Origin: a virus
IMG/VR virus record: IMGVR_UViG_3300027747_001183
Strand: one strand, 5' to 3'
Length of the DNA stretch: 64,000 nt
A program made the position numbers and the translations under genes. The notes below the pieces were generated by a model that saw only the letters and a list, made by a program, of their open reading frames with translations, ran no database searches and had not been told where the DNA came from. Every line of letters starts with the position of its first letter. Position 1 is the first letter of the stretch. Shown one piece after another: positions 14,417-57,606 of this stretch.

Positions 14417-14793
14417 TTCTTTTCACCGTATGCTTGATTCAGCTGCTTGACGATACTCTTTAGATAATCAGAAGACGGCGCTGAAGCCCTTCCCTCTGCT
14501 CCGTGCATTATGTCTACCAGAGTCTCGTGTGTGTCTTTCTTCGAGTCTGCTATTACTGCTCGAATCCTAGCAGCGCTGTCTTCTATCTCAGCAGACTTCT
14601 TTTCAAACTCTTGTTTCTGCTGCTGTACTATGGCGTCCTGCTTTGCATTGAACTCTTCTGTAGCCTTGTTCCAGACTTCATGGTCGTGTATCGCAAGCCA
14701 GCTAAAGAACGCTATTCCTGCAGCCACTACTCCGCCGATGAGCCATGGGATAGAAGAACCGCCCGTGAAGAGTGCGAGTACGAATCTTATCAT
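14413..14793 (-). CDS. Inner-membrane spanin (Rz-like)
   Basis: N-terminal TM helix followed by coiled coil; paired with lipoprotein. Confidence 0.7.
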   Translation of the reverse strand: MIRFVLALFTGGSSIPWLIGGVVAAGIAFFSWLAIHDHEVWNKATEEFNAKQDAIVQQQKQEFEKKSAEIEDSAARIRAVIADSKKDTHETLVDIMHGAEGRASAPSSDYLKSIVKQLNQAYGEKK

Positions 14794-16022
14794 GACAGAG
14801 ACAGTGCCTTGTCTCTGCGAGACTTCTGGTAGTCATCCATCTTGTCTAGGTATCCAGCATTTCTGAGATCTTTAAAGACTAGGTTACCGAAAGCAAACTC
14901 CCCATCTTTTCCAATAGAGTCGCCGCGCATGGTCTTTATCTTCTTCTTTATAGCGTCTATCGCGTCATCGTCTGCATTTGTCGATATTAAGTGATCGATC
15001 ATGTCTTTGTAGAACTGCACCTTGTCTTCTAGATGCTCGTCATTAGCAAACTCGAGTTCTAGATGCTGAGGCTCTTGAATCCATGCATTGTTTAAGATTG
15101 AGTATACTCCCTGATCCCTATGAGGAGCTTCCTGTATGTCTTGCGCGTATAGCTCTACTGGGTACCCATAGATGCTGATGTCTGGGTGAGTCAGAGTCCA
15201 TAGAATCTTCTTGTCTTGAAGGTACTCGTCTACTAGCTCACGGTCTGGGTTCATAGCGTCTCTAGATATTACGAGGTGCAGGTCTATGTCAGACATAGGT
15301 GTATAGTTGAAGTTTACGTTACCACCGGTAATGATGATGTCATGTACCATGGCGCGATCGATCTTTGCAAACTTCATCCACGTATCTGCTATCTGCATGA
15401 GTTTTCCGCGGACTTCTGTCTTTAGTCTGTTCTCTTGCCAGAGCTTCGAGTTTAGCTGGTCATGATACTCTAGACTGGTCTCTTTTAGTCCAGTCTGCGC
15501 TACGTGCTTGAGCGGCGTAAGCTTAGACCTTCTAAGAAGACCGGTAGAGTAATTCATGTTACTGCGCCTGTACTTGCGAGCAGCTTCTGGGTTGACTATC
15601 GGGATCTCGCCAGCTCTTGATCCCAGTGCGATTCCTGCGCCTGAAGTTGAGTTTGAAGGAGCGTCTTCGTATAGGTCGTAAACTTCGTTGAGTGTCTTCT
15701 GAAACTCTTCTTCTAGGTTGAAGAGCACGTTGTGTGGGTTCTGCTGGTATGACTCGTACGTCCTCGTAAGGAAGAGGGCTGCAGCGTAGCTAGCGAGCTT
15801 GCTCTTTCCACCTGGAACGAGCGCGATAAGACGCTTTAGGTTGATGACTAGGATGTCGAAGTATGTGCAGATGTTCTGCTCAGCTGGAGTAAACTGCGAC
15901 CTCTGCTTTAGGAACTTTCCGTTTCCATTTATGAGTCCTGCATGATATGCCGGCATCTCTGTGAACGGCGTCACCAGCTTCTTGATAAACTGGTATATCA
16001 TATAGATGTCCATGACTGCCAT
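14790..16022 (-). CDS. T4 61.1-like N-terminal domain fused to a Pol-beta-type nucleotidyltransferase domain
   Basis: N-term YQFIKKLVTPF..NLKRLI..SYAAALFL; C-term ITGGNVNFNY..SDIDLHLV..PVELYAQ. Confidence 0.7.
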   Translation of the reverse strand: MAVMDIYMIYQFIKKLVTPFTEMPAYHAGLINGNGKFLKQRSQFTPAEQNICTYFDILVINLKRLIALVPGGKSKLASYAAALFLTRTYESYQQNPHNVLFNLEEEFQKTLNEVYDLYEDAPSNSTSGAGIALGSRAGEIPIVNPEAARKYRRSNMNYSTGLLRRSKLTPLKHVAQTGLKETSLEYHDQLNSKLWQENRLKTEVRGKLMQIADTWMKFAKIDRAMVHDIIITGGNVNFNYTPMSDIDLHLVISRDAMNPDRELVDEYLQDKKILWTLTHPDISIYGYPVELYAQDIQEAPHRDQGVYSILNNAWIQEPQHLELEFANDEHLEDKVQFYKDMIDHLISTNADDDAIDAIKKKIKTMRGDSIGKDGEFAFGNLVFKDLRNAGYLDKMDDYQKSRRDKALSLS

Positions 16023-16023
16023 C

Positions 16024-16416
16024 TTAGATGTTCCTTAGTGCTCTTACTACGTTCTGGTCGATCTCTATGTCTGAAGTAAGTATAGTCCTGTTGTCTATAC
16101 CAATGCTCTCGACACGATCTGGTAGATTATTTAATGCAATTAAGAACGGGGCTAGACACTTTTCTAGCCCTTGGCACTTAAAAAATAGCATCCGCACAGA
16201 AGCCTGTACACCAAAGAGGTTGAACAGTACTACTATATGGTTTAGAATAAGACGCTCTTTCAGGTCCCCGTCTTCGACGTACCTGTTGAGCAGTCTCTTT
16301 ATGTACTTGAATCTCTTGAGGTCCTCATAGAACTCGATAGTGTCAAAGCACTGCGGATTGTCATAGTGCTTTGCCGCGTAGAGGAGGAAGTTTGATGCGT
16401 CCAGCTTTTCAATCAT
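16024..16416 (-). CDS. Conserved T4-like hypothetical protein
   Basis: YAAKHYDNPQC..EDLKRFKYIKRL..ERLILNH. Confidence 0.75.
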   Translation of the reverse strand: MIEKLDASNFLLYAAKHYDNPQCFDTIEFYEDLKRFKYIKRLLNRYVEDGDLKERLILNHIVVLFNLFGVQASVRMLFFKCQGLEKCLAPFLIALNNLPDRVESIGIDNRTILTSDIEIDQNVVRALRNI

Positions 16417-16417
16417 G

Positions 16418-16790: not shown

Positions 16791-17804
16791 TTATGCGTCT
16801 GGGAAGACGTTGTCGTCGTTAGCGTCGCCGGAGATCGAACCCATAGCTACGAGAGTCTCGTAGGTTACGCGTCCTGCGCGGCCGCCGGTGCCTATGGTCC
16901 TCTTTATCCAACCAGCATGAGTACTTGTATGCACGCCGGAAAGGAAAGGTACCGCAGCTGCAGTCACACCGGTAATTGAGTGTCCAGTCTCAGAAACACT
17001 CGCAGTAAGGTCGATGTTAGCGCCACCGCTAGTTGCTGCTAGAGCGATAGTGGTAGTGTTTGCAAACGAGACGTAGTAGCTGGTGTTGTTAGCAAGACCG
17101 CCGACGGCTGTGTTGCCTGTAGCAACTAGATAAGTTAGGCGATCACCGACTGCCCATGTAGTGTTGGCAGTAGAGATCGAGATGGTGTCGTTTGTGTTCG
17201 ATACTGCAGTCAGAGCGTTGAAAGTGATCGCAGTAGGTGCCGAGATAGATAGCGTAGGAGGAGTCAAGAAGCCTGCGCCGTTGTTGGCGAACAGGATCGC
17301 GTCTACCTTACCTGCAGTCACGTGAGCGTTTCCAGATACCGCCACCGTGTTGCCAGTGCCGCCGGTAAATGTAGCAGTAGCATTTGCAGTGTAGCCAGTA
17401 CCGTAGCTGGTGAATGTTACTTCACGTACGGCACCATTAGCTACAGAAGCCTCAGTCGTGTCTAGGCCGTATACAGTGTTTGAGTAGTTGTCGTACAGGT
17501 CAGAAGCATACGCCGCGTTGGAATTGTAGTTTGCGTCCATCACGTAGAACCTAGGCTTCTCGCTGAGAACGTATGCTGCGTTTGCCTGTGCAGTAACAGT
17601 AGTATTCTGGTACTGTCCGACTACCTGAGCAGCCGTGTTTGAAGTGATCGAGCGGATCATGTAGTCGTTGTTGGCCATAAGAATGAAGTCGCCAACCTTT
17701 GCTTCTGTCTGAAATGATGTCGATGTTCCGTTGACAAAGCCGTTCGAACTGATGTTCGCGTAGCCAGAAGCTGTCTTGGAATCTGCATTGCCCCAAAGTG
17801 CCAT
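16791..17804 (-). CDS. Virion structural protein (beta-rich, Thr/Asn/Ala-rich)
   Basis: MALWG start; GTGYT..PTLSI modules; HAGW..GGRAGRV..ETLVAM end. Confidence 0.7.
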   Translation of the reverse strand: MALWGNADSKTASGYANISSNGFVNGTSTSFQTEAKVGDFILMANNDYMIRSITSNTAAQVVGQYQNTTVTAQANAAYVLSEKPRFYVMDANYNSNAAYASDLYDNYSNTVYGLDTTEASVANGAVREVTFTSYGTGYTANATATFTGGTGNTVAVSGNAHVTAGKVDAILFANNGAGFLTPPTLSISAPTAITFNALTAVSNTNDTISISTANTTWAVGDRLTYLVATGNTAVGGLANNTSYYVSFANTTTIALAATSGGANIDLTASVSETGHSITGVTAAAVPFLSGVHTSTHAGWIKRTIGTGGRAGRVTYETLVAMGSISGDANDDNVFPDA

Positions 17805-17805: not shown

Positions 17806-18291
17806 TTATTTTTCCTCTCCTATAAGGTCTTTAAGATACCCAGATAATTTGTAAAGAATATGCTCACTCTTGATGTGACTAGGTCTGATAGTATCTTTAT
17901 TTATATTCTTGCCGACAGTAGGAGCTGGAAATGCCTTTTCTACTACTTCTGGAAGCGTCTTCAGCTCATTCTTCTTTTGCTTTATGGTCTTTTCAGTCAG
18001 AGAATCTCTAATGTCTGCAAAAGATGTACCTTCTTCAGGCTCGATTGTGGCTACTTCGTTCTTTACTATCAGTCTGCTCTGCTGCTTTATCTCAGTATCA
18101 TGAACTGAGTTTCTCAGATCTGCAAAGGAGACTCCCTCATCTTTTACCTGTTCTTCTACTTTATTTACTACGAGTCTAGACGTCTGCTTTACCACTGTGT
18201 CCGTGACAGACCTGCGCAGGTCTGCAAACGAGACTCCCTCTTCTCTTTCTGAATCTTCAGTCTTGGTGACTTGGTTCTTTACAAGAAGCAT
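17806..18291 (-). CDS. Hypothetical protein with three internal repeats
   Basis: EGVSFADLR / EGVSFADLR / EGTSFADIR. Confidence 0.6.
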   Translation of the reverse strand: MLLVKNQVTKTEDSEREEGVSFADLRRSVTDTVVKQTSRLVVNKVEEQVKDEGVSFADLRNSVHDTEIKQQSRLIVKNEVATIEPEEGTSFADIRDSLTEKTIKQKKNELKTLPEVVEKAFPAPTVGKNINKDTIRPSHIKSEHILYKLSGYLKDLIGEEK

Positions 18292-18725
18292 TACTTGCTC
18301 GTAGCCCTCAGCATCCAACCATGCTTCTTGTGAATATCAGTACGGTCTTGAAGGAAGTTCGACAGCCCGATCTCGCCTGCAGCCTCGGCCGCATCGTATG
18401 CGGTCTTGATGGCTGCAAGTAGAATATTATTATCTGCTAGAGCCATCTTGATCATCTCCGGAGCTGGGATCGGCTCCACCTGATCTTTAATCTTGGTCAT
18501 GTCTAGATAGCGGCTGAGTGAGCCGGGTGCGTACCCCTCGATGGCCCTGATATGCTCAGCGATTGCGTCGTGCGCTTCCCATACCTCGTTGTATAGGGTA
18601 TCTAGGAAACCATGATACTGAGGAAAGTCAGACCCCTCGATGTTCCAGTGAAAGAAGTGCAGCTTTAGGTAAAACGAGAAGTTCGTCGCTAGGTATACTT
18701 TCATAGCGTCCATTAGGTTAGCCAT
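18291..18725 (-). CDS. dps: Dps family ferritin-like protein
   Basis: HFFHWNIEG..FPQYH..DAIAEHIR..HKKHGWML. Confidence 0.92.
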   Translation of the reverse strand: MANLMDAMKVYLATNFSFYLKLHFFHWNIEGSDFPQYHGFLDTLYNEVWEAHDAIAEHIRAIEGYAPGSLSRYLDMTKIKDQVEPIPAPEMIKMALADNNILLAAIKTAYDAAEAAGEIGLSNFLQDRTDIHKKHGWMLRATSK

Positions 18726-18765: not shown

Positions 18766-19107
18766 TTAGCAGTTCCACTTTCTTAGTGCTTTATTGATTC
18801 TTGAGTCCGGGTCATGTGCTGTCTTAGAAGAAGTCAGTCTCTTCTTCATCCCACCCATGCGCGCGCAGAATGACTTGCGGCGATTGGCTGCCTTAGAGCC
18901 CTTCTTAAGCTTCGACGGCTTAGTAGTAACTGGTGCCTTGAGGTGGCTTCCAGTAGTATGGTTGTAGTGGTCGCGACCCTTCTGAGTCAGCCCACCAGTA
19001 GAGCTCTTGAAACCCTTGGAGTCTACTGCAGCCTCGTCGATCGACGATTGAATGCAGGTGCATCCCTCTCCACAACCCACTTCTCTAAATTCTCTGAAAG
19101 TCTTCAT
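18766..19107 (-). CDS. Putative internal head protein (DUF6321-like)
   Basis: MKTFREFRE N-terminus; GGLTQKGR..RRKSFCARM..LRKWNC. Confidence 0.65.
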   Translation of the reverse strand: MKTFREFREVGCGEGCTCIQSSIDEAAVDSKGFKSSTGGLTQKGRDHYNHTTGSHLKAPVTTKPSKLKKGSKAANRRKSFCARMGGMKKRLTSSKTAHDPDSRINKALRKWNC

Positions 19108-19328
19108 GGCCTTAGCTCCGGATACTTTTTATGAAGCTCTTCTTTAGGAAGCTCATGAATGTCTTTCCACATGTTAGCTTCTTTTTTAGTCTTAGTCGAG
19201 CGTATGTGTCTGCCGTTCTCATCGTGAACGTGCCATTCAGTATCGCCTGTAGTATTCCCGCGATAGCTCACGTTCTTAGTGATTACGGCTTTCTTTTCTT
19301 CACCCATGAATTCTTTGAAAGTCTTCAT
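19104..19328 (-). CDS. Putative internal head protein
   Basis: MKTFKEFMGE resembles T4 capsid-targeting sequence MKTYQEFIAE. Confidence 0.6.
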   Translation of the reverse strand: MKTFKEFMGEEKKAVITKNVSYRGNTTGDTEWHVHDENGRHIRSTKTKKEANMWKDIHELPKEELHKKYPELRP

Positions 19329-21190
19329 TGTGAGTCCTTAAAGTCTTTATTAGTAGGGGCGCCCTTGGAACCCGGCTTTCTCATGTGCTCGCCAGAACCA
19401 TTCTTGATTCTCTTGCGCTTTGCCCAGATGTTGTCCCATAGACCGCGCTTTTCCTGTACTACTTCTTCTTTCATATTCTCGTGGCATGCACCGCAGTTCA
19501 TGCCCTTCTTCTCTACCGGAGCACCACACTCCGGACACTTGTACATCTTCTTGTCTTCTTTTAATTTTGCACGAACAGCTTTCTGAGCGCCATCGAGCGT
19601 CCTATACTTTACCGGGTCACGATCATTACCGTGCATTATTGTATATGATTTGCTGTCTCCACCGTAATGAATTGAAGAATCGCCAGTGTGATGCCTCCAC
19701 ATTCCTGGTCTAACGAGTTTAAATTCTTCTTCATCCCATTTTGGTGCTTTTGCTTCAGTCCTAACGTTATCTTCTTTCATACCAATGCCAGGAGGTACTT
19801 TATCAACGTCAGGAAGCACATAAGGTCCTGGTTTTTTTATACCTGCAGCTTTTCTGACAGCATTTTTTACTGTGTTATAAGCAGCTTTAGATTTGTATGG
19901 AACATTATCTATTTCATGGCGTCTATGTACAGCACCAACTAATCGTGGCGAGAGTTCAAATAGTTGTTCAAAATCTTCATTAGTTTTCTTTTTAATTGCA
20001 TCATATGCAGCAGAATTTTTTTCCATCTCTTGGCGATATTTGTCGCTAGAGTTAGGCTCTACGCCTTTTGCTTTCATAGCTTTTTTAATTTTAGAAGCAG
20101 CAGAAACATATCCTTTACCGTATTTTTCATCAATAACTTTCTTTACGATTGATTGCTGACGATATGGTCTATCATCTTTTTTACGATCTTTATCATTACG
20201 AACAGTTAAATCGATAGTGTGTCTATCTTGACCTGAGCGAGGTACCGCCTCGCGGTGCTTTCCAAACTTCTCACCGGGAGTATCACCCCTGTATGTCTTG
20301 GTAAGTGAAGTAGTACCCCACTCGCGCTTGCTTGTGTCTGCTCTATTGTAAGCTTCTTCTATCGCGTCGAGTAGACTGTGGGTGTCGTCTGTGTCGATCA
20401 TCATGGCAGCACTGAAGAGGTCGTCTATGTCTTCCTTTACCTTCTTCTTGCTTGCCTTGTTGATGTCGCTCATCATCTCTTCGGCGTGCTTGTGAAGCTC
20501 AGTCGGAAGACCCGACTTGAACGCGGAGATGTTTCCATTCTTTGCATGCTCGCGCATCTTGGTGCCAGAAATACCCTTTGTACCTTCAGCGTCTGGGTCG
20601 CGATCGATCTTCTTTACTGTAATAGACTTAAAGTTGTAGTGGATCTTACCGCTCTTATCCGGCTTTCCGTTGTACCTATGAAGCAGCTTCTCATATTCAT
20701 CAGCCCTGTCAGCTCCAGCCACGACAACTAAGTGGTGGGCGTGTCTGTTAAGCCTAGCAGCAGTATCTATGATGCTGGGGGCTTCCCTAGAAGTGGATGA
20801 AACGTGAGTACTAGGTAAAGCTACTTTCTTTAGGTACTCAACTTTCTTTGACGTTGGAATCGGATTCTTTTCGTCTTCCTCAGAGTGTGATGTCACGACG
20901 TGTGCAGAACCACCGACTCTCTTGGCCTCGGCTTCTACCGCCCTGATGACCTTTACGTGACCCTTGTGGACCGGCTGCGCCCTCATGTTAAGGTTGGTCA
21001 CGGCAGTGTGCTCTGCGGCTTCCTGTACTGGGTTCATCTCGATCTTGTCGATAGGTGACCCAGTCATGGCAACTCCGCCCTTGACGATCTCATCGTTGAC
21101 CTTGGTGTTCTTAAGTCTCTTCTTCGAGACTCCGACCTTGTTCTCGTCGGCTGCAGTAGTGTTGCTCGTGGTATTATTGGTCTCTGCCAT
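19325..21190 (-). CDS. HIGH-family cytidylyltransferase-like domain within a probable protease-processed virion polyprotein
   Basis: RAQPVHKGH, VVAGADR, ISGTKMR; many hydrophobic-x-E sites; TATAAATA at 21212-21219. Confidence 0.7.
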   Translation of the reverse strand: MAETNNTTSNTTAADENKVGVSKKRLKNTKVNDEIVKGGVAMTGSPIDKIEMNPVQEAAEHTAVTNLNMRAQPVHKGHVKVIRAVEAEAKRVGGSAHVVTSHSEEDEKNPIPTSKKVEYLKKVALPSTHVSSTSREAPSIIDTAARLNRHAHHLVVVAGADRADEYEKLLHRYNGKPDKSGKIHYNFKSITVKKIDRDPDAEGTKGISGTKMREHAKNGNISAFKSGLPTELHKHAEEMMSDINKASKKKVKEDIDDLFSAAMMIDTDDTHSLLDAIEEAYNRADTSKREWGTTSLTKTYRGDTPGEKFGKHREAVPRSGQDRHTIDLTVRNDKDRKKDDRPYRQQSIVKKVIDEKYGKGYVSAASKIKKAMKAKGVEPNSSDKYRQEMEKNSAAYDAIKKKTNEDFEQLFELSPRLVGAVHRRHEIDNVPYKSKAAYNTVKNAVRKAAGIKKPGPYVLPDVDKVPPGIGMKEDNVRTEAKAPKWDEEEFKLVRPGMWRHHTGDSSIHYGGDSKSYTIMHGNDRDPVKYRTLDGAQKAVRAKLKEDKKMYKCPECGAPVEKKGMNCGACHENMKEEVVQEKRGLWDNIWAKRKRIKNGSGEHMRKPGSKGAPTNKDFKDSQ

Positions 21191-21214
21191 CTGAATCTCT
21201 TCTTTTATTTTTAT

Positions 21215-21850
21215 TTATAAAGGCTTCATTACTGTGTCTGCACCAGATCGAGCGACTACGTGGTACTCAAAGTCGGCTAGGTAGTTGATAGGACCAGCAT
21301 GCGCGTTCTCGCATATGATGACTGGCTTATGCTTCTTGATACTATTTATTAGACCCATGAGTGCAAAGTGCTCTCCGCCCTCGATGTCTAGATATATCAA
21401 GTCCAGCTTCTCGTACTCAAAGGTGTCTCCACGCATCATTATAGAGTCACCGCCGTACGTCCTCTCGAAGGCTACGCTTCCAGTCCCGCGGTTATTGTTT
21501 GCTGGGTGGTTGAACGTGCACCACTTGTTCTCGTTCCCGAGTGCAGCATTGAACTTGATGATCCTCTTAGACTCACAGTTCTGCGCTAGGCAGAAGAAGT
21601 TTACTGGGTCCGGCTCAAACGTCACTACTCTCTCAAAGATGTCAGACAGCAGTCTCGGGTACATACCCGCCCCTCCGCCTGCCTGTATGACGGTATGTCG
21701 TGACTTGCAATGGTCGAGTATGATGTCCCTTATAGCTCCCCACTCTTGACTCGGGCCTGCCCACAGACCTGAGTCTTCCCACGGCCATACCCAGTCCCCT
21801 ACGCCGTCTATAGTACGCGCTTCTATCTTAGTCTCGAAACCTGGCTTCAT
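21215..21850 (-). CDS. FkbM-family SAM methyltransferase
   Basis: VIQAGGGAGMYP, TFEPDP, LIYLDIEGGE, KPVIICE. Confidence 0.85.
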   Translation of the reverse strand: MKPGFETKIEARTIDGVGDWVWPWEDSGLWAGPSQEWGAIRDIILDHCKSRHTVIQAGGGAGMYPRLLSDIFERVVTFEPDPVNFFCLAQNCESKRIIKFNAALGNENKWCTFNHPANNNRGTGSVAFERTYGGDSIMMRGDTFEYEKLDLIYLDIEGGEHFALMGLINSIKKHKPVIICENAHAGPINYLADFEYHVVARSGADTVMKPL

Positions 21851-22956
21851 GCTACTACTCCTCTAGACTTTGGTATCTTAGAGTCTGCAGATGATACGCA
21901 CGACTTAGATATGCATACCGTAGGCTTATCAAACAGCTTGAAGCCAGTCTCTATGTTTCCGAGCGGCTTGTCCGAGCAGCTGTAGCTTCTCTTGATGTTG
22001 CCGTCTGGTTCTCTGATAACGATGCTCTGGTAACCGGAGTTACAGGACCAACCTTTGAACTGGTTGAAGTTGAAAGCATTGAATCTTTCAGCCTGATCCA
22101 TATACCACTTTTTACCCGTGTTATCTTCAAGCTCGACATTGAACTGCTGAGGAACATTTGCGCCATCCTTTTCTAGGTCTAGTATAGGCTCTAAGTCTAT
22201 CGGCCTGATTATCTTTGTCTTTGACTCCGTATACGCTCTCTGGGGCATGCCGTTATGGAGCTTAGACATCATCTCTTCTGTATATCCAGAGACTACGTAG
22301 GAAGCCTTTGGGTCTGACTGAGGCTTGAGCGTGACATTGATTCCACGGTCGTGAAAGTACAGCGCTTCTTCATAGAGCATGTCAAACCACTCTGGAACCA
22401 TTACCATGTTGATAGTAACGCTTACGCCGTATGTCTGTAGAAACTCAAGCTTGTCTGCAAATAGAGACATCTTCTCCGGAGTGTTGATGTACTCACGGTG
22501 ATAGCTAGCCGTGATCATTGCCTTGCTGAACTTTACAGATAAGTCCACATACTTCTGAAACCACTTCATGTTCTGAGACAGATTAGTAGTCATATGTATC
22601 GAAGTGTAGTTTGTATTTTGAACGTCGTCTGCTAGGTGCTGAAGTATGTCCAGATAGCCTGGATGAAAAGTAGGCTCTCCACCACTAAGGCTAAAGTGAA
22701 AGCTGTTGAATCCATTTTCCCTCGCTTGTCTCTTTATCTCGTCTACAGTTCTAAGGCATAGCTCTGTCGGTCTATGATCTTTCTGTTGACTGTGAGCATA
22801 CGGCCAGCAGTATGAGCAGTTGTAGTTGCAGAATCTTCCTAGAATCCAGCTTACTGTAAACATGTCGCGATAGAGCATAGACATCTGGCCGATCTTTACT
22901 ATTCGGTCAAACGGTATCTTAGAGAAGTCGTAGCTGCTTAGTTCAAGTTCATTCAT
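21847..22956 (-). CDS. Radical SAM protein with C-terminal SPASM/Twitch-like cysteines
   Basis: CNYNCSYC, SGGEPT, WSCNSG..SYSC..CISKSC. Confidence 0.9.
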   Translation of the reverse strand: MNELELSSYDFSKIPFDRIVKIGQMSMLYRDMFTVSWILGRFCNYNCSYCWPYAHSQQKDHRPTELCLRTVDEIKRQARENGFNSFHFSLSGGEPTFHPGYLDILQHLADDVQNTNYTSIHMTTNLSQNMKWFQKYVDLSVKFSKAMITASYHREYINTPEKMSLFADKLEFLQTYGVSVTINMVMVPEWFDMLYEEALYFHDRGINVTLKPQSDPKASYVVSGYTEEMMSKLHNGMPQRAYTESKTKIIRPIDLEPILDLEKDGANVPQQFNVELEDNTGKKWYMDQAERFNAFNFNQFKGWSCNSGYQSIVIREPDGNIKRSYSCSDKPLGNIETGFKLFDKPTVCISKSCVSSADSKIPKSRGVVA

Positions 22957-23515
22957 GCCACATGTCACCCTGCATCGGGTCGATGCTTAACTCATTGATG
23001 TTTAAGTGTCTAGGTTGTTCTATAACCCACTTAATATATAAAGCGATCTCGTCTATAGGTATACACTTTCTAGTAGGGTGCTTTTCTTGATTGTTTGACA
23101 GCGTACCAAAGCTTATGTAAGAAACCTTACAAGGGGGTGCAGAAGACCAAACGGACGATCTAGTTATATCGTTGCTCAGGTCCCTTAGTGCCCTCTTCTC
23201 AGAACCGTATAGCCATACTCTACCACCGGCAACCCTGTCTATAGTACTACCAATGTTTATTATGTGGGTCTCAGCGTTCCACTCCATGCACTTAGCGTAC
23301 ATTTCCTGCAGCATCAGCGTCTGGTTAAAGTTATGAAGCGCGGAGTTGTTTATAAACACGTCATGCTGGCACGCTTCCTGCGCTACCCTCTCGCGATCTT
23401 TCTTAGTCGTAAGATCGTATCCGCTGCTCTTACTAAAGAAAGTAGCTTCAGGGTATATCTTGTATATAGAAGCTGCGAGACCTTTCTTTGGATTACCAGT
23501 CAAACATAGTTTCAT
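22949..23515 (-). CDS. Short-chain dehydrogenase/reductase-like protein
   Basis: LTGNPKKGLA, FINNSA, IINIGS, YGSEK (YxxxK). Confidence 0.75.
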   Translation of the reverse strand: MKLCLTGNPKKGLAASIYKIYPEATFFSKSSGYDLTTKKDRERVAQEACQHDVFINNSALHNFNQTLMLQEMYAKCMEWNAETHIINIGSTIDRVAGGRVWLYGSEKRALRDLSNDITRSSVWSSAPPCKVSYISFGTLSNNQEKHPTRKCIPIDEIALYIKWVIEQPRHLNINELSIDPMQGDMWHE

Positions 23516-24221
23516 ATCTTAATCCATTATCTATTAGTAGCTTCTTGTGAAATTCTCTATATGAGTCTATATCAGATAGTCTAAATTCAACGCCAAACAT
23601 ATCTTCTAGTTCGTGCACATATCTATAGCCGTTCTCAAATAGAAGTCTATCCATGTAGACTATAGTCTCATTATTCATGTACTCAGGAGATCGATTCCTA
23701 TAGAAACTATATACAGACGTATTATTATAGTGATCGAGTGCTTTCTTCTTTAGTAAGAACTTATATATCTTCTCGTTGTCGCGATTGTCTATGTCAAGCG
23801 CTATGTTTATAGACCCGGGAAATATATCATGCAGTGGAAGAAAAAGCTGGTTTCCATACGTATGGTGAGTGTTAAAGACTGCGAGAGTCTCTCTGAGATG
23901 ATTCATCTGGCCACGAAGATCGTCTACTATGTTTCTCTTGAATTGAGTCTCTTCATTGTCAAATACTATCTCAAAGTACTTTATCTGCCTTCTTGCAAAC
24001 AGCGTATTTTCATTAAAAAAGTGAGCCCTGTAAAGCTCACTTCTCCAGAGTCCAACTATTATGTCTAGATTCTTTACGCCATGAGAAGAGGTAATACCCG
24101 GAGTAGTATACGTGGTAGTCAGACCCTCGGATATGACCATATCATTTCTCATTATAAGATTAGCTAGAAAGTCACCACCATAGGAGTGTGGATAGTTTAT
24201 AGTAATGAGCTTATCGAACAT
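23493..24221 (-). CDS. Hypothetical protein, possibly P-loop/sulfotransferase-like
   Basis: AT-rich ORF; YPHSYGGDFL N-terminal motif. Confidence 0.55.
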   Translation of the reverse strand: MFDKLITINYPHSYGGDFLANLIMRNDMVISEGLTTTYTTPGITSSHGVKNLDIIVGLWRSELYRAHFFNENTLFARRQIKYFEIVFDNEETQFKRNIVDDLRGQMNHLRETLAVFNTHHTYGNQLFLPLHDIFPGSINIALDIDNRDNEKIYKFLLKKKALDHYNNTSVYSFYRNRSPEYMNNETIVYMDRLLFENGYRYVHELEDMFGVEFRLSDIDSYREFHKKLLIDNGLRYETMFDW

Positions 24222-25360
24222 TACTCCGGCTTCTTGAACCTCGTGTTATTCAAGATAGCGTTTGATACTTTCTTGGGTACTAGCTTCGCGATAGGACGAT
24301 TATTCCTCTGTAGAACTATTCCCTCACCCGGCGACTTCTTACCGTCGATGCTGGTGTGCATGTCTGGATGCTCTACACCCCTGAGTACGTGCTCAGTAGC
24401 CTGCTCAAGGTGGTGATGGATATCGAGCGACCTCTGGAAGTGATGGGCGTGCTTGTCGACGTGCGCAATGAGGGCAGCGTGCTCGGCTACTTTTCTCTCT
24501 TTTGCAGCAGGAGTCTTTACCTTGCTAGCAGCCTTGGCACCCTCGCTCTCTAGGTGCTTCTTGTATCCCTCGACAGACGGCGTCTCACCCTTGCGAGTGG
24601 TACGGTTAATGTAGGTAGCGAAGTGAACTTGATGCTCTGGAGTCAGGTGATGGGACGTATGACCGGCCAGCAGAGCCTTGGCCGCGTTTAGGTGGTGTTC
24701 AGTAGCAGCCCTGTCTTTCTCAGAGTAGGTGCTCGGATCTGGATGGTACTCGTGCTCAGGAGTAAAGATCTTAGAAGACTTCTTGGTAGCACCCTTTGAG
24801 AGCGCCTGAGCCTTTCCACCCTTGTACTCAGTATGGAGTGCAACTCCGAGAGGAGCCCTAGTCCTAGCCTTGTACGTGATCCTGTTAGGGGTCATCGAGG
24901 TGTTCTCACCGCTCTTCTTAGTCTCATCTGAAGGTGTATACAGCATGTCGCCCTGTACGTGGTGACCCCTGTTGACTACCTCGTGTCCGTGCGCAAGTAC
25001 GTGCTTGAGTGCGGCCGCGTAGCCCGGTGCGTGCCCGAAGTGCTTGTCGACTTCTTCTGGAGTACGAGCGACTACACCCCTAGCAAACCTGTGCTTATCA
25101 GACACCGCCACGCCGTGCTCGTCGTGGATGATGTGAATGGAAGCTCCGCCGTCGGTCTTCAGCGAGGCCTTGATCGGACTGGACTTACCCATCCTAGAAT
25201 TATGGAACTGACGGATCAAGTCGTGTCCTAGGTTGGCGTGCTCCGGAGACTCGTGAGCTATAGCTTTAGCGTGAGTAAGGTGACCGAGCTGCTCAGTATC
25301 GATCGAAGTTCCTACAGCTTTAGTCTTGGCTTCTGTGATGAATGATGCGAATGTTAACAT
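24221..25360 (-). CDS. His-rich putative internal head protein with RNA-ligase-like motifs (DUF6267-like)
   Basis: MLTFASFITE; LKTDG, VQGDML, EGIVL, AKLV; about 10% His by hand count. Confidence 0.65.
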   Translation of the reverse strand: MLTFASFITEAKTKAVGTSIDTEQLGHLTHAKAIAHESPEHANLGHDLIRQFHNSRMGKSSPIKASLKTDGGASIHIIHDEHGVAVSDKHRFARGVVARTPEEVDKHFGHAPGYAAALKHVLAHGHEVVNRGHHVQGDMLYTPSDETKKSGENTSMTPNRITYKARTRAPLGVALHTEYKGGKAQALSKGATKKSSKIFTPEHEYHPDPSTYSEKDRAATEHHLNAAKALLAGHTSHHLTPEHQVHFATYINRTTRKGETPSVEGYKKHLESEGAKAASKVKTPAAKERKVAEHAALIAHVDKHAHHFQRSLDIHHHLEQATEHVLRGVEHPDMHTSIDGKKSPGEGIVLQRNNRPIAKLVPKKVSNAILNNTRFKKPE

Positions 25361-25361: not shown

Positions 25362-26336
25362 TTAATTCTTTGTCTCGTAGTCCATCTTTACATTGCCTGG
25401 ACGATTTTCGTCGCTTTTTTTCTTGTTTTTCTTGCCTTTTGGAAGTGCAATTCTAGGTATTCCTACCTTGATCGGCTGATTGTTAGTCTCAGTATCGTGG
25501 ATGTGCGGTGCCTGACCAGCAATAGTAGTTACTAGGTGAGTAGCAGTACCAGTCTCACCGTGGCCAAACTTACCGTGACCAGTGGCAGCCTCGTGCGCTA
25601 CGTGCTGTAGTAGACCCGGGTGCTTCTCATGTATATCATTCATGTGCTGCTGAGCTTCGTCTCTCAGCCTATGCAATTCATTCCTGTCATTAGTATACTG
25701 CATGGCATTTAGATTTGACTGGATCTTTTCTACGTGACCCATCACTTCTCTATGATGCTGAGCAGTAAATCCCCTGTTAGCTTTTGCGTGCTGAGCAAGT
25801 GCGTGGGAATACGTAGCACGAAATTCATTTGGCTCTGCCGACATCAGCTGCGAATCACCCTTCTTAAGCGAAATTGATATTCTCTCTTTGGGGTTTTTCG
25901 GGTGAGACAGCACTATGTCTGCCTTAGATGTCTTATTTGTTGCACCAGAACTCTTCCACGTATCAGAAAGTTTTCCTGTTTCTCTACCAGCCACATGAGC
26001 CTGATACTTCTGAGCTACTGCCTTTTTGAAAGAAGGATGATTGGCCATGCCGTGCACTGCATGAGCAGCGTGACGTAGCTCATTGTAGTATGCAGCTTCA
26101 TGTTCTGGCTTCTTTCCGCCAGTAAATCCGTCCTGGGCGTTTGCAAAGTTTAGTGGATGATTCTTGTCTTTCTTTGCAGCCTCTATCTCTCTGTGAAGGT
26201 GCTCTGGACTGGATAGTAGTCTAGAAGCTTCTGGGTGTTTTACTGCATGGTTCCACAGTGATGACAGTGCATATTCGTCACTGTATCCAGACTTAGTAGC
26301 TTCTTGTAGGGATTGGTAGTCGCTGAAGGTTAGCAT
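25362..26336 (-). CDS. His-rich putative internal head protein, PD-(D/E)xK nuclease-like
   Basis: MLTFSDYQSLQE; TSKADIVL..ISISLKK; late-like TAATAAATA at 26358-26366. Confidence 0.55.
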   Translation of the reverse strand: MLTFSDYQSLQEATKSGYSDEYALSSLWNHAVKHPEASRLLSSPEHLHREIEAAKKDKNHPLNFANAQDGFTGGKKPEHEAAYYNELRHAAHAVHGMANHPSFKKAVAQKYQAHVAGRETGKLSDTWKSSGATNKTSKADIVLSHPKNPKERISISLKKGDSQLMSAEPNEFRATYSHALAQHAKANRGFTAQHHREVMGHVEKIQSNLNAMQYTNDRNELHRLRDEAQQHMNDIHEKHPGLLQHVAHEAATGHGKFGHGETGTATHLVTTIAGQAPHIHDTETNNQPIKVGIPRIALPKGKKNKKKSDENRPGNVKMDYETKN

Positions 26337-29414: not shown

Positions 29415-29515
29415 TTCCATTCCTTATATTATTAATATAAGCTAGATCGGAATAAAAGTACACAGTTTTTTTGAAAAAATAAGAACTTTTTTTTCTCAAT
29501 CTTTTCAAGGACTTA
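29415..29515 (-). promoter_or_regulatory. Repeated early-promoter cassette
   Basis: Near-identical to 5774-5873, including TAAGTCCTTGAAAAGATT and CTTATATT-att-AATATAAG. Confidence 0.8.
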
Positions 29516-30265: not shown

Positions 30266-30269
30266 ATAG

Positions 30270-49146: not shown

Positions 49147-50436
49147 ATGACAGAAGTTTTTTGTCCACTACCATGGTATCATCTCGCTACTAAAGCAAAC
49201 GGCGATCTAAGAATCTGCTGTCAGTCTAATCAAGGACCGACAAGAGGTATTCTTAAGAACGAGAGCGGCGATACGTACAATCTAAATAAACACGGAATTA
49301 TGGATTCTAGAAACGCACCTCTAGCTAAAGAAGTGCGCGCAGCGATGCTCAATGGTATTAAGCACCCAGAGTGCTCTAGGTGTTGGAAAGAAGAGAGCAG
49401 TGGAATACGTAGCAAAAGAATAGGCTCAATCGAGCTTCATAGCATGTATGACTCATACGGCGAAGCTATTCAGGTTACTCAGCCAGATGGTACAATACCG
49501 CAAGACTTTCCATATAGAGACTACGATCTTAGATTTGGAAACTTATGCAACTTAAAGTGTAGAATGTGCGGACCGACTGAAAGTTCAATGTGGTATGACG
49601 ACTACTTTGAACAGCACGGTAAAAAGTTCGATGATACGGGTTATAGATGGCACGAGAGACCGGAGATATGGAGAGACTTAGAATCTCAGATGGAATATTC
49701 AGAGTACGTCTATATTATTGGAGGCGAGCCTACTCTAATACAGAAGCATTTTGAATTTTTAGAGAAGTGTATTAAGAACGATCACTCTAAACGCATGAGA
49801 CTTGAGTACGCATCTAACATAACTAACATTCATCAAAAGTACTTTGATATATGGAGTCAGTTCAAGAAAGTACATATAGCGTGCTCAATAGACGGTGTTG
49901 GAGCGGTGAATGACTACATACGATTTCCAAGTAAGTGGAAAGTCATTGAAAAAAACTTAGAGAAGCTAGTAGCATATTCGTCTAAGAAAATAAGAATTAC
50001 GATATCACTTACGGTGAACGCCTATAACGTGTACTATCTAGACGACGTATATAAGTGGAATCTTCAGAACCTAGAATGTAAGATTAATCCACACCCTCTC
50101 CATGGCCCGCGACTAATGAGCACAAAGATATTTCCTAAATACATTAAAGATGATATAGCTAAGAAGATAAGGTCTCTTTATCAGTGGATGAAAAATAACG
50201 GTCATGGTGATAAAGTGGAGAATATATCAAGACAAATAGAAAGTCATATACACTTTATGATGAGTGAAGATCTGTCTCAACTCATGCCAGAATTCTGGAA
50301 AGAGACAGACAAACTAGATGCAATTAGGAGACAGAATATATCAAATTCTCTCCCAGAGCTCTATGATTTGATAAAAGATACTCGAAATTTATTAAACATA
50401 GGAGACTACAATGGCATCAAAGAGCCTTCAGCCTGA
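49147..50436 (+). CDS. Radical SAM protein with N-terminal Twitch-like domain
   Basis: CPLPW..RICC..CSRC; DLRFGNLCNLKCRMC; IGGEPT. Confidence 0.9.
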   Translation: MTEVFCPLPWYHLATKANGDLRICCQSNQGPTRGILKNESGDTYNLNKHGIMDSRNAPLAKEVRAAMLNGIKHPECSRCWKEESSGIRSKRIGSIELHSMYDSYGEAIQVTQPDGTIPQDFPYRDYDLRFGNLCNLKCRMCGPTESSMWYDDYFEQHGKKFDDTGYRWHERPEIWRDLESQMEYSEYVYIIGGEPTLIQKHFEFLEKCIKNDHSKRMRLEYASNITNIHQKYFDIWSQFKKVHIACSIDGVGAVNDYIRFPSKWKVIEKNLEKLVAYSSKKIRITISLTVNAYNVYYLDDVYKWNLQNLECKINPHPLHGPRLMSTKIFPKYIKDDIAKKIRSLYQWMKNNGHGDKVENISRQIESHIHFMMSEDLSQLMPEFWKETDKLDAIRRQNISNSLPELYDLIKDTRNLLNIGDYNGIKEPSA

Positions 50437-50728: not shown

Positions 50729-51772
50729 TTACCTTAAGAACTGGTCTTCGAAGTGGTCATGCTCTACTGAGCAAGTCTTTGCACACATTCGCAGTTTTCC
50801 TTCTGCGAGTGACGGCGCGCTCCATGACTTCTCAATCTTATCAAAGAATCCGCTCTCGAAGACGCCGTTTATACCGTGCACCTTTGCATCTATATCTGAT
50901 TTATCACTTATTATGTGCTTAAACAGGTGACTGTCTTTATATTTTGATACTTCGGGATCATACATCTCGGAGCCACCTATCCAGCAGCAAGGTACCACTA
51001 GCCCTTCTGCACTAACGTACATTGAATTCTGCTTAACGACCCTGCACCCAATCTCAGTCTTATCTAAGAACTTATCCCAGCCCCCAAACTTCTGCTTAGC
51101 GCGCTCTCTAAAGTCGTTTACGTCGTGTACGTATTCTTTCTTTTCCGGCTGAGATAGGTGTTTATATACTGACATGCCGTTCTGCCAGCGCGATGTACGC
51201 TTTGGTATAAAAGCCTTGAACCCTAGCTTCTTAGCCAGTGCTCGAGCTTCTTCTACCTGATGCTCGTTGTGCTTGAACACTAGAAAGTGCCACTCGGCTT
51301 GGCCGCCAGCACCTATGAAAGACTCCATCGCATTCATTACCCTGTCCCACTGGACGTTTTCTCTGTAGATATGGTTCGTATCTTCCAGTCCATCGACCGA
51401 GAAGGTAACTCGACCTTCATACAGCACCGATGCTAGGTCTCTCCACCACTCTGAGCTGCGCGCTCCTCCGTTGGTGAACATGCTCAGCTTCATAGATAGA
51501 TTAGTATACCTAAAATACTCAAACACTTCAAGCGTGTCTCTAGCCATTATAGGATCGCCGAAGTTTCCACACATGTACATGGCATGGAGCTGCTTGATAA
51601 AGTCTTTCTCAAAGATGTTCTTGCAGTCTTCTAGAGAAAGCTCAGCGTTCGTTAGGTGGTGCATTAGCTTTCCGCTACCGCTGCTGTCGTGTCTAGGACA
51701 CATGGCGCAGCCGGCCTGACACTTCTCAGTTATCTCTAGGTGTACCTTGCGTATATCCCTGTACTTATACAT
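50729..51772 (-). CDS. Radical SAM/SPASM protein
   Basis: HLEITEKCQAGCAMC, GNFGDP, TNGG, VPCCW, CAKTC. Confidence 0.9.
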   Translation of the reverse strand: MYKYRDIRKVHLEITEKCQAGCAMCPRHDSSGSGKLMHHLTNAELSLEDCKNIFEKDFIKQLHAMYMCGNFGDPIMARDTLEVFEYFRYTNLSMKLSMFTNGGARSSEWWRDLASVLYEGRVTFSVDGLEDTNHIYRENVQWDRVMNAMESFIGAGGQAEWHFLVFKHNEHQVEEARALAKKLGFKAFIPKRTSRWQNGMSVYKHLSQPEKKEYVHDVNDFRERAKQKFGGWDKFLDKTEIGCRVVKQNSMYVSAEGLVVPCCWIGGSEMYDPEVSKYKDSHLFKHIISDKSDIDAKVHGINGVFESGFFDKIEKSWSAPSLAEGKLRMCAKTCSVEHDHFEDQFLR

Positions 51773-51987
51773 CAGATGGTCGTCGGTGACTTCATCGGAT
51801 CGTAAGGGTCGATCTTCTCTATGCGGCTGAGAGCGTCTTTCTCGTAGCGAAGAACTTGATACCATCCGAGGAAGGCAGTAAAGTCTGCAAACATGGCCGA
51901 GTAGTTCTGGTTGAAGATCTCAATGATAAAAGAAACCGCGACTACTGCTAGGATCGCGTACGAGAGCTTAATAAAGGTATGTATCAT
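51772..51987 (-). CDS. Small membrane protein
   Basis: Two hydrophobic segments. Confidence 0.55.
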   Translation of the reverse strand: MIHTFIKLSYAILAVVAVSFIIEIFNQNYSAMFADFTAFLGWYQVLRYEKDALSRIEKIDPYDPMKSPTTI

Positions 51988-52241: not shown

Positions 52242-52317
52242 TGGTGGGGGATGAGGGACTCGAACCCCCGATCAGACCGTTATGAGCAGCCGGCTTTTGC
52301 CACTAAGCTAATCCCCC
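52242..52317 (-). tRNA. tRNA with CAT anticodon (Ile2 or elongator Met)
   Basis: GGCTG-CT-CAT-AA-CGGTC; G1:C72; CCA. Confidence 0.85.
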
Positions 52318-55789: not shown

Positions 55790-55890
55790 TTGTATCTCCA
55801 TTGGTTATATTATTAATATAAGCTTTTTTGATAAAAAAGTACACAAAAAAACAGCACTTTTAACAAAAAAAGTGCCGTTGAAAAGATTGA
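55790..55890 (-). promoter_or_regulatory. Early-promoter cassette
   Basis: Near-identical to 5658-5714; GCCGTTGAAAAGATT. Confidence 0.8.
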
Positions 55891-55900
55891 GTTTTTTCTG

Positions 55901-56986
55901 TCACAATCGGGGTAGGGAGCCTCCCCTGTGAAGCTCCGTGGTATTGCAGTGGATTCCACCATCAAAAAAGAATCTGTGTCTCAGGGGTGATATGTGTGGC
56001 ACTATGCCATGCTTCTCAAAGGCATCAAAAGCCTGCTTGTTATAAGAAGAAACTATGACGTTCTTCTCATCTATTGTCAAAATATTGACATCAAATATGT
56101 TTTCTCTGATATGCTTAGACCAGTCATTCATCCACTTCTCTACGTACTCTACGAGCTCGTCATCGTCCTGAGCTCTAGGCATGTACCACTTTCCATGGTT
56201 CTTCTTCTTTGAAGCAAGAAAATCATTCATTGAATTTAGTCTGCTGTTCTTGAAGTAGATGACTTCCCATCCGGGGAACGTCTTACTATAAGTGTCTGGG
56301 CTATAGACTGAGAATATAAGACCCGGCTTTACTGGATTAAAGCAGCCATCTGTATGACCACCACTCGTTACAGGAATGACGCTGTAGTCTCTAAGCCAGT
56401 TCTCCCACACGTAGTCTACAGCGTCTATCATCTCAAAGTCGGTAAGCTTCTTGCTCGATCCAAAGAGTATATCTTTGCCAGTTCTCCATATACCGTTTAG
56501 CCTAATTAGGCTTAAAACATCATCGCTCTCACCTCGAATTATCTTATTTCCGTTTGACTCAACATAGTCAAATACATTATCAAAGCACGAACTTAAGTTT
56601 TCTTTTTTGATGTCTTCAAGACTTAGCTTTATAGCACACTGTCTATTCTGCTTTATAACAATCTGATCGGGTGGAAATGAAAAGAACTTATCTCCTATCA
56701 TTATTATCTGGTCTCTAGGTACAGCGGAGACTGCAGGTGGTATGCTTATACCCTTTGATATATACTTTTCTGTATCTACTAGCGGCACCCTAGGGCGCAA
56801 TACGTCTATGTTAAACGTCTTTAAGATGGAGATTAGTTTCTGCTTGTCTTCTTCCACCTCTATCGCAATCTGCTCAAACAGATTGCGAAGCCTACGGTTC
56901 TTCATAAAGCTAAAGAACTCAGGTGGGTAGCTTCTTCCTACCACGCATACCTTGAGTGGGTCCCACTCTTGATTCACTGTTAACAT
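55901..56986 (-). CDS. Amidinotransferase (glycine/inosamine-phosphate amidinotransferase family)
   Basis: EWDPLKVCVVG, PRDQ, GHTDGCF, FDVNIL, DGGIHCNT. Confidence 0.85.
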   Translation of the reverse strand: MLTVNQEWDPLKVCVVGRSYPPEFFSFMKNRRLRNLFEQIAIEVEEDKQKLISILKTFNIDVLRPRVPLVDTEKYISKGISIPPAVSAVPRDQIIMIGDKFFSFPPDQIVIKQNRQCAIKLSLEDIKKENLSSCFDNVFDYVESNGNKIIRGESDDVLSLIRLNGIWRTGKDILFGSSKKLTDFEMIDAVDYVWENWLRDYSVIPVTSGGHTDGCFNPVKPGLIFSVYSPDTYSKTFPGWEVIYFKNSRLNSMNDFLASKKKNHGKWYMPRAQDDDELVEYVEKWMNDWSKHIRENIFDVNILTIDEKNVIVSSYNKQAFDAFEKHGIVPHISPLRHRFFFDGGIHCNTTELHRGGSLPRL

Positions 56987-56988
56987 GT

Positions 56989-57606
56989 CTAAGCGGTGTA
57001 CCTCTTCATTGATCCGTCTGGTCTGACGTGATACGCATGGAACTGAGTGTGTGGGTATTCTCTCTTGAGTCCTAAGAAAGCATCCAAGTTCTCGTGGCTG
57101 TCATCATACATCCTAACGTGAGTGTAGGGATGATTTGCGAGGTGCTGTCTAATGAATGTAAGCTTCTTGTTAGCCGGCTTCTCGTTACCCGGAATGTTTC
57201 CAGCTCGATGCACATGGATGTCGTGCATGTTATGAATGCCATGCGCAGTGAGAGTATTTAAGAACCTGTGCTTGTCATCGAAGTCTGCTCGAGCCGTGTT
57301 GATGATGACCCTGTTCTTTGGGTTCTTCTTCCTAGTCGCAGAAGTAGCATTGATCGTGTTGATCATGCGATGGATCGGCTTTGACTTACTAAACACGCGA
57401 GAGCTCTTGAACTCATGATAGTCGTAGTGGTGTCCGGGTGGAAGCCTATGGCTGTTGTACTCAGACGTAGTCAGCTTCTGGACAGTATGCCCGTGTGGGT
57501 CCTTTACGTGCACCTTCGCGTTCGAGTGGACTAGCGTATCGTCCACGTCGAACACGTGCAGTGTAGATGACTCTGATATGAACTCTGAGAAGGGCTTCAG
57601 TTGCAT
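56989..57606 (-). CDS. His-rich HAD-family phosphatase with capsid-targeting-like N-terminus
   Basis: MQLKPFSEFISE; LHVFDVDDTL, NTARA, K, YDD; about 11% His by hand count. Confidence 0.75.
   Translation of the reverse strand: MQLKPFSEFISESSTLHVFDVDDTLVHSNAKVHVKDPHGHTVQKLTTSEYNSHRLPPGHHYDYHEFKSSRVFSKSKPIHRMINTINATSATRKKNPKNRVIINTARADFDDKHRFLNTLTAHGIHNMHDIHVHRAGNIPGNEKPANKKLTFIRQHLANHPYTHVRMYDDSHENLDAFLGLKREYPHTQFHAYHVRPDGSMKRYTA

Follow-up and report, generated by a model that had tools for sequence, protein, structure and literature searches.

Leader-bearing enzyme genes of a T4-like phage as candidates for internal head cargo

The internal proteins of phage T4 are the textbook case of proteins delivered together with phage DNA, and the injected cargo known from T4 comprises small inhibitors plus the Alt enzyme. 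Whether related phages may load and deliver a wider set of enzymes in the same manner is the question raised by a 64,000-nucleotide stretch of viral DNA (IMG/VR record IMGVR_UViG_3300027747_001183; the whole stretch is referred to here as the window), in which six minus-strand genes, named A to F, open with M-x-x-F-x-x-F-(I/L)-x-E leaders. These leaders are very like the tag that loads proteins into the T4 head, so the six proteins are probably packed into the virus particle, and the reading that we prefer, and hold to be fairly likely on indirect evidence, is that the genes encode internal head cargo of a T4-like phage.

A shared leader and the junction at its end

The six genes, all on the minus strand, are the following.

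A, 18766-19107 (-): leader MKTFREFRE, followed by a very basic DUF6321 domain (isoelectric point (pI) 10.1; Pfam DUF6321, E 6.2e-23)
B, 19104-19328 (-): leader MKTFKEFMGE, followed by a 64-residue basic protein with 6.8% histidine
C, 24221-25360 (-): leader MLTFASFITE, then A; 379-residue DUF6267 protein with a predicted ligase-type covalent nucleotidyltransferase fold and a helical insert
D, 25362-26336 (-): leader MLTFSDYQSLQE, then A; predicted MspI/HinP1I-like PD-(D/E)xK nuclease fold, 324 residues, pI 9.5
E, 39963-40313 (-): leader MKNFLDFINE, followed by a 106-residue basic protein with 7.8% histidine
F, 56989-57606 (-): leader MQLKPFSEFISE, then S; putative HAD-type phosphatase, 205 residues, 11.2% histidine

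All six N-termini are thus present as quoted in the initial annotation of this DNA, which had likened them to the T4 capsid-targeting sequence (CTS), and that of F starts at an ATG inside a longer GTG frame reaching 57672, a start shared by its homologues. The leaders end in ITE, LQE, INE, ISE, MGE or FRE, a hydrophobic-x-Glu type of site. The leader of B has 7 of 10 residues in common with the T4 CTS, MKTYQEFIAE (PMC8442874), and one D-family member starts MKTFQEFLAEA. A strict form of the pattern, M.{1,4}[FY]..[FYW].{0,3}[ILMFV].E, fits five of the genes (B-F), against an expectation of 0.245 from 2000 shuffles of the 98 open reading frames (ORFs), among which the largest count was 4, and it occurs at none of 444 internal Met positions. 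A possible seventh leader, MITFANFAE followed by ATKDLGT, opens an ORF on the minority strand (6067-6525 (+), pI ~9.8) with no family match and no PHROG match, which may be either genuine cargo or a frame open by chance.

The leader is conserved across families: it is present in 91 of 118 DUF6267 proteins, in 100 of 116 homologues of the HAD protein F and in 94 of 141 D-family representatives, most apparent exceptions being mis-called starts or cases of longer spacing, and it is kept while the protein bodies fall to ~30% identity. At its junction, >95% have L or I at P3, with Glu at P1 and mostly Ala or Ser at P1', a pattern that matches cleavage after Glu by T4-type head proteases (PMC5694885). 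Two relatives of this phage, here G001 (99% complete) and G002 (near-complete), encode a Peptidase_S77 of the gp21 family (E 6.6e-41 and 4.3e-34).

The same kind of junction recurs in proteins related to two further genes of the window, both without an N-terminal leader.

G, 14790-16022 (-): two-module protein, acidic (pI 5.9)
H, 19325-21190 (-): HIGH nucleotidyltransferase, then a zinc ribbon, then a basic DUF6321-like tail

A phi-x-E-(A/S) junction, phi being a hydrophobic residue, precedes the first strand of the HIGH domain, by 10-17 residues where the distance is readable. It forms the N-terminal leader of the HIGH enzyme in G001 and in the Methylophilales phage Melnitz, and the interdomain linker in fusions of DUF6267 to the nucleotidyltransferase (AINE then S; LQE then AA); in H it is found just before the HIGH domain, after a 57-residue extension (V55-Q-E57, then AA). 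Likewise, longer DUF6267 forms contain an internal leader remnant ahead of a conserved L-G-H-L-T-H block. In G, the second module follows L179-K-E181, then T, and this site lies two residues before the start of homology to gp156, a separate gene of the cyanophage S-CREM2 (45% identity over residues 183-409 of G). The internal cleavage-like sites that had been pointed out in G and H thus coincide with a leader, a linker or a gene boundary in relatives, and both proteins are probably loaded and processed at such internal phi-x-E sites.

Homologues of H and G have been found in virus particles of cultured T4-like cyanophages. The cytidylyltransferase gp154 of S-CREM2, detected in purified virions (PMC10665884), is a homologue of H (blastp E 3.9e-12) and starts MKNFSSFLTE, then A; gp156, the counterpart of the second module of G, was detected in the same purified virions, and the leaderless DUF6267 protein of this phage (gp87) is not in its virion table (PMC10665884). 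NMNAT-like/cytidylyltransferase proteins were also found in virions of S-SCSM1 (ORF91; PMC9602691) and of S-SM1 (T4-GC190; PMC3037559), the latter being linked to H by shared annotation and homology only, as the exact gene could not be confirmed.

The charge of the proteins points in the same direction. T4 internal proteins are highly basic, and A-F and H resemble them in having a pI >9.2 (window median 6.3). The three proteins described earlier as containing about 9-11% histidine, C (10.3%), D (8.6%) and F, are the three most histidine-rich among the 98 ORFs (window median 2.25%, sd 2.0). Histidine-richness persists within its clade down to ~32% identity; we considered and rejected it as a property of the protein families, since homologues in Melnitz, S-CREM2 and the Stenotrophomonas phage DLP6 contain 1-4% and members of the D family range from 0.4 to 14%. 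It thus belongs to one clade.

Melnitz and DLP6, cultured relatives with 1-3% histidine in these proteins, carry the leader as well. Melnitz has the same gene block, located between the helicase and the structural genes, with a D-like protein (MQGFKTFLSE, then A), a DUF6267 protein (xINFSKYITE, then D), a 130-residue basic protein (MKKFSELTSE) and a 650-residue HIGH enzyme (MKKFSEIIE, then A), and the DUF6267 protein of DLP6 opens with MMKFTQFLAE, then S. The set itself varies: G001 encodes C and DUF6321 together with an H-like enzyme and the N-terminal module of G, and is without D, F, E and B. Such varying sets, together with the fusions, fit a shuffled repertoire of nucleic-acid or nucleotide enzymes with one address tag and not a fixed pathway.

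Several of the genes lie in runs headed by motifs of the T4 late-promoter type, of which the exact form, TATAAATA, occurs 10 times in the window against 1.5 expected.

21212-21219 (-): exact T4-type late promoter motif TATAAATA, 22 nt upstream of H, heading the overlapping run H-B-A
26358-26366 (-): late-promoter-like variant TAATAAATA, 22 nt upstream of D, heading the run D-C
40332-40340 (-): variant TAATAAATA, 19 nt upstream of E

The earlier statement that late motifs precede leader genes holds for D and E in the form of the variant. Among H and the leader genes the exact motif precedes H only, and neither form is found upstream of F; C, B and A lie downstream within the motif-headed runs. 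The motifs would fit late transcription of H, D and E. The leaders thus behave like a CTS in several respects, being conserved across families, ending in (L/I)-x-E and belonging to basic proteins of a T4-like phage with late motifs.

The proteins behind the leader and their surroundings

At the level of fold or motif, the ligase, PD-(D/E)xK, HAD and HIGH assignments made from the sequence at the outset hold, and the motifs are invariant in family alignments. C belongs to Pfam DUF6267 (E 3.3e-30), a family for which no mention was found in the literature searched. A structure model of C (predicted local distance difference test (pLDDT) 89) has as its best neighbours the Naegleria RNA ligase NgrRnl (5cot; Z 9.5 over 186 residues), T4 Rnl2 (2hvq; Z 7.8), REL1 (Z 7.2) and DNA ligases (~7), the top 11 rows all being ligases; the best DNA ligase (Z 7.2) and the T4 RNA ligase (Z 7.8) tie under the aligner's own rule. 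Foldseek agrees weakly with the ligase fold, its seven best matches being DNA ligases, and a sequence-profile search of the PDB gave no match to any solved ligase. Motifs I (K68-T-D70-G71), III (Q136-G-D138), IIIa (P158-N-x-I-x-Y163), IV (E346-G-x-V349) and V (K359-x-V361) follow in the usual order on the nucleotidyltransferase fold, and K68, D70, Q136, E346, G347 and K359 do not vary among 20 homologues, whose identity falls as low as 31%. In the model, a helical insert of ~110 residues (214-325) separates motif IIIa from motif IV. The model ends ~20 residues past motif V, and no OB domain was seen in it, no dedicated search having been made. The model therefore supports a ligase-type nucleotidyltransferase fold for C. 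DUF6267 and the HIGH enzyme adjoin in 77 of 84 loci and are fused in S-PM2 and in many metagenomic proteins. The S-PM2 fusion gene, d138 (L001 3995-5770), is annotated as a hypothetical protein and opens directly at a conserved H-L-E-H block, without a leader.

For D, there is no family model, and a sequence-profile search of the PDB gave chance-level rows only. The structure model (pLDDT 91) matches MspI (1sa3; Z 10.1 over 211 of 262 residues), HinP1I (1ynm; Z 8.6 over 192 residues) and HhaI (Z 5.5; next unrelated row 5.0), the same three enzymes that head the Foldseek results. Two motifs, K138-A-D140 and S156-L-K158-K159, carry D140, S156 and K158, which are invariant in the family alignment. 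Judged by the model, the PD-(D/E)xK call is right, and D looks like a DNA nuclease, its structural relatives being enzymes of double-stranded DNA. The family comprises at least 753 representatives (clusters) and has no Pfam model. Fusion proteins also join its domains to a HIGH nucleotidyltransferase with SET and HNH, a PAP2 phosphatase or, by a weak match, a Pol-beta palm. Two such proteins, P0441 (1264 residues; MspI-like domain with CTP_transf_like, SET and HNH) and P0420 (743 residues; MspI-like domain with PAP2 phosphatase), may be polyprotein cargo in other phages.

The third enzyme-like protein, F, lies 32 kb from the other leader genes and has HAD motifs I-IV (D20-x-D22-x-T24, T104-A-R106, K148, D168-D169), of which D20, D22, T24, T104, K148, D168 and D169 are invariant in 20 homologues. 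It weakly matches phrog_415, named polynucleotide kinase (E 2.1e-7). Pfam gave DUF2608 only (E 0.071), and a profile search of the PDB returned chance-level rows only, matching neither a solved HAD nor T4 Pnkp. Among its relatives in the atlas, Acid_phosphat_B or DUF2608 is assigned to 10-19% of members, which serves as a lead only.

The HIGH enzyme H has the motifs H75-K-G-H78 and S208-G-T-K-M-R and matches the phrog_3041 cytidyltransferase (E 3.6e-44); with Pfam CTP_transf_like it scores 19.8 bits, just below the cut-off of 21. By tblastn, its nucleotidyltransferase domain has matches in 551 phage records, mostly of cyanophages, to genes with the annotation cytidylyltransferase, and by sequence H is the 'cytidylyltransferase' of T4-like cyanophages. 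In sequence-profile searches of the PDB the single H domain gave no match, and a profile of the domain found MJ0951 (2.9e-4), NMNAT, PPAT and RibF only, all weakly. The role of an RNA-tailing enzyme was considered for H and rejected as unsupported, its nearest solved relatives being small-molecule adenylyltransferases of the NMNAT, PPAT and FAD-synthetase type; we know of no HIGH enzyme that extends RNA. In G, the N-terminal module matches phrog_18642 and the second (residues 181-409) phrog_36119 (E 7.6e-73), the latter with a Pol-beta-type nucleotidyltransferase-like motif, G233-G ... D245-I-D247. The atlas lead to NTP_transf_2 has a score of only 0.90, and neither Pfam nor NCBIfam gave a match for G; for all eight proteins, A-H, NCBIfam returned nothing useful.

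Of the smaller proteins, A consists of a module found elsewhere at the C-terminus of large proteins, both in relatives and in PHROG families of 99-928 residues; a stand-alone homologue in locus L014 has the leader MITFKEYLQE. For B and E, there is no family match in Pfam or PHROG.

The window is a mostly co-directional minus-strand stretch from the replication region of a T4-like phage, with the following landmarks.

10971-12971: class I ribonucleotide reductase
13048-14121: primase-like ORF, T4-like backbone
29505-30218: ThyX-like ORF
30189-39886 and 52242-52317 (-): 14 tRNA genes, most of them clustered at 38-40 kb, just downstream of E
40765-42153: gp41 helicase, T4-like backbone
42790-43830: UvsX, T4-like backbone
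44736-47261: gp43 DNA polymerase, T4-like backbone

A megablast of 20 kb of the window against 50,697 phage records found no near-identical relative; homologues of its proteins come from many metagenomes, including contigs of 118-178 kb. Several neighbouring genes are worth recording. Directly after A, in the putatively late H-B-A run, lies a ferritin/Dps-like DNA-binding protein without a leader (18291-18725 (-); Pfam Ferritin, E 1.4e-20; phrog_3636 'DNA binding protein'), which would be an unusual occurrence inside a late, virion-associated gene block. An acidic 170-residue protein (17806-18318 (-)) contains 3 copies of a ~35-residue repeat with EGVSFADLR, and within its gene, at 17898-17905, a further TATAAATA motif is located ahead of a fibre-like gene (16791-17804). 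A 217-residue ORF (27746-28399 (-)) without a family match has a signal-peptide-like start, MNKLLITTAAAALLATSAFA, and a composition like that of a beta-barrel outer-membrane protein. Finally, the window contains four radical SAM genes (21847-22968, 26357-27745, 49147-50436 and 50729-51865), one of which combines a SPASM domain with a weak match to ADDT (amino acid:DNA transferase; E 0.001) that stays below the cut-off, and, near them, an FkbM-type methyltransferase gene (21215-21850) and a gene for a DNA methyltransferase (62897-63943). As a group these genes may point to hypermodification of DNA or of other targets, and hypermodified DNA would bear on how the phage genome escapes a packaged nuclease.

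Cargo, replication enzymes or a repair kit

In the model that we prefer, the proteins would be made late, and the ~10-12-residue leader, acting like the T4 CTS, would dock each of them to the prohead's scaffolding core. A gp21-type prohead protease would then cut after the leader Glu, and the mature basic enzyme would stay with the packaged DNA and probably enter the host along with it. The cargo would comprise a DUF6267 ligase-fold nucleotidyltransferase, an MspI-like nuclease, a HAD phosphatase, a basic DUF6321 protein and two small basic proteins. The sequence features, the folds, the conservation and the presence of homologues of H and G in virions of another phage are observed; loading, cleavage and ejection in this phage are inferred from them, as is any activity in the host, where the proteins would most likely process nucleic acids or nucleotides early on and so serve takeover or counter-defence.

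A number of points weigh against this model. The papers on the S-CREM2 and S-SCSM1 proteomes warn that late proteins, where abundant, may co-purify with the particles (PMC10665884, PMC9602691). The virion data come from phages other than this one or its histidine-rich clade, and the homologues detected are of H and G only, with none of C, D or F. H and G themselves have no N-terminal leader. The head module and gp21 lie outside the window and are seen in relatives only, and in some HAD homologues the leader ends F-V-G, with no Glu. In S-PM2 and S-CREM2, DUF6267 is leaderless, and the DUF6267 family is thus not cargo by nature. An active restriction-like nuclease packed together with the genome would also require either a protected genome or an inactive enzyme.

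The alternative that survives best, which we nevertheless regard as unlikely, is that these are replication or repair enzymes of the infected cell, with DUF6267 as a DNA ligase replacing a missing gp30, the NMNAT-like partner supplying or recycling its cofactor and the leader serving some other purpose. The genes are located in the replication module, with the gp41 helicase on one side and the primase on the other; in the 99%-complete G001, no PF01068, PF01653 or PF09414 ligase was found and DUF6267 is the only gene of the ligase superfamily. The frequent linkage or fusion of DUF6267 to the HIGH nucleotidyltransferase and the leaderless cyanophage forms agree with such a role. However, the runs are preceded by late promoter motifs and not by early or middle ones, and three unrelated families have kept the leader together with its protease-type junction. 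The nucleotidyltransferase partner was found in virions (PMC10665884, PMC3037559). A replicative role would also leave D, F, A, B and E unexplained. Finally, replicative DNA ligases use an OB domain, and none was seen in the C model. The cargo and DNA-ligase readings are not exclusive: the missing canonical ligase of G001 and the location in the replication module suggest that DUF6267 may be, or once was, a phage DNA ligase with an NMNAT-like partner, packaging being possibly a later addition in the leader-bearing lineages.

Less probable again is the proposal of the initial annotation that the genes form an RNA repair kit, in which the phosphatase would heal, the ligase seal and the nucleotidyltransferases tail broken tRNA or rRNA, the enzymes being injected before host anticodon nucleases block translation. 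It draws on the RNA ligases (NgrRnl, T4 Rnl2 and REL1) that lead the structural neighbours of C, on the OB domain not seen in C, as in RNA ligases, on the DxDxT phosphatase F with its weak match to a PHROG named polynucleotide kinase, on the D-family fusions to HIGH and Pol-beta nucleotidyltransferases and PAP2, in which nuclease, transferase and phosphatase travel together, and on the 14 tRNA genes of the phage. The structural comparison that had been proposed did yield a ligase fold for C and a PD-(D/E)xK fold for D, but the relatives of D, namely MspI, HinP1I and HhaI, are restriction enzymes acting on double-stranded DNA, and DNA ligases tie with RNA ligases for C. None of A-H contains a Walker A kinase motif, G-x4-G-K-[ST], which would leave the set unable to heal 5' ends; the HIGH profile points, weakly, to enzymes mostly adenylylating small molecules, and the HAD profile matched neither T4 Pnkp nor any solved HAD. 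F lies 32 kb from C, and G001 is without D, F, E and B. Of the initial proposal, the leader stands, and so do the enzyme assignments at fold or motif level; neither the heal-seal-tail scheme nor the suggested role of histidine as a pH- or metal-dependent switch is supported.

We would give no more credence than to RNA repair to a far-reaching extension of the cargo model, in which a large uncultured T4-like clade would inject an end-processing kit, consisting of a restriction-like nuclease, a ligase-fold enzyme, a HAD phosphatase and HIGH and Pol-beta nucleotidyltransferases, under one protease-removable tag and sometimes as polyproteins. An evolved histidine content of 8-14% would act as a charge switch, keeping the proteins cationic and DNA-bound inside the capsid and releasing them at cytoplasmic pH, and the kit would act during the first seconds of infection, cutting host DNA and repairing or modifying nucleic acids of the phage or of the host. 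Least probable of all is that the shared N-terminus is not a capsid signal but a generic amphipathic start that helps translation or folding, or a tag directing the proteins to another site such as the membrane or a replication factory, as might be suggested by its shortness, its simple composition and the terminal Glu missing in some homologues: the pattern, seldom met in shuffles, occurs at none of the internal Met positions; the conservation of P3 and P1 is exactly that of head protease sites; polyproteins contain the same junction internally, where translation cannot be its reason; the leader closely resembles the experimentally proven T4 CTS (PMC8442874); and a leader-bearing homologue, S-CREM2 gp154, was detected in virions.

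If the cargo model is true, abundant aquatic T4-like phages would deliver whole enzymes before any gene expression, and the recurring cytidylyltransferase/NMNAT-like proteins of cyanophage virion proteomes would be explained. DUF6267, DUF6321 and a nuclease family without a Pfam model (at least 753 clusters) would gain a testable role, and virion cargo could be recognized in metagenomes by a simple sequence rule, namely M-x-x-F-x-x-F-(I/L)-x-E at the N-terminus or a phi-x-E junction inside the protein. The histidine-rich clade adds a compositional signal that can be tested on purified proteins.

Comparison with known systems

Three known groups of enzymes resemble individual proteins described here. 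With the ATP-dependent RNA and DNA ligases (Naegleria Rnl5, T4 Rnl2, T4 Rnl1 and Chlorella virus ligase), C has in common the fold, the order of the motifs and the invariant motif I lysine; unlike them, it has Q-G-D as motif III, a helical insert and no sequence-level match, and its model shows neither an OB nor an Rnl-type C-terminal domain. With the monomeric type II restriction endonucleases MspI, HinP1I and HhaI, D shares the overall fold, covering most of both proteins, and its D-x15-S-x-K motif resembles their active sites, which we take to be D...(N/Q)-x-K variants; it differs in having only 7-8% sequence identity to them, an N-terminal leader and a large phage family of its own. The tRNA repair pathway of T4, like this phage, combines a ligase-fold enzyme (Rnl1) and a DxDxT phosphatase (Pnkp) in one phage, whereas here there is no kinase domain, the genes are unlinked and no significant match to Pnkp was obtained; to our knowledge, T4 Pnkp and Rnl1 are not packaged.

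The virion enzymes of the cyanophages S-SM1 (T4-GC190), S-SCSM1 (ORF91) and S-CREM2 (gp154) form a further parallel, H being homologous to gp154, which has the same leader. H differs from these virion cytidylyltransferases in the extension that replaces the leader and in its zinc ribbon and DUF6321-like tail. In the three reports there is no mention of a targeting leader or of cleavage, and in the literature searched no link between capsid targeting and the cyanophage enzymes was found.

The closest parallel is the T4 system of CTS and internal proteins, and the set of leader genes is a variant of this known mechanism. Both have a ~10-residue leader, closely similar in sequence and with (I/L)-x-E at its end, a T4-like phage with a gp21-family protease (here in relatives), late expression (here predicted from motifs) and basic cargo, and the variability of the cargo set between relatives recalls the hypervariable internal-protein loci of T4. 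In contrast to T4, whose cargo includes small inhibitors such as IPI*, the predicted cargo here would consist mostly of enzymes of 200-380 residues, three of them containing 9-11% histidine, whose genes lie in the replication module and whose leader junction is also used inside fusions.

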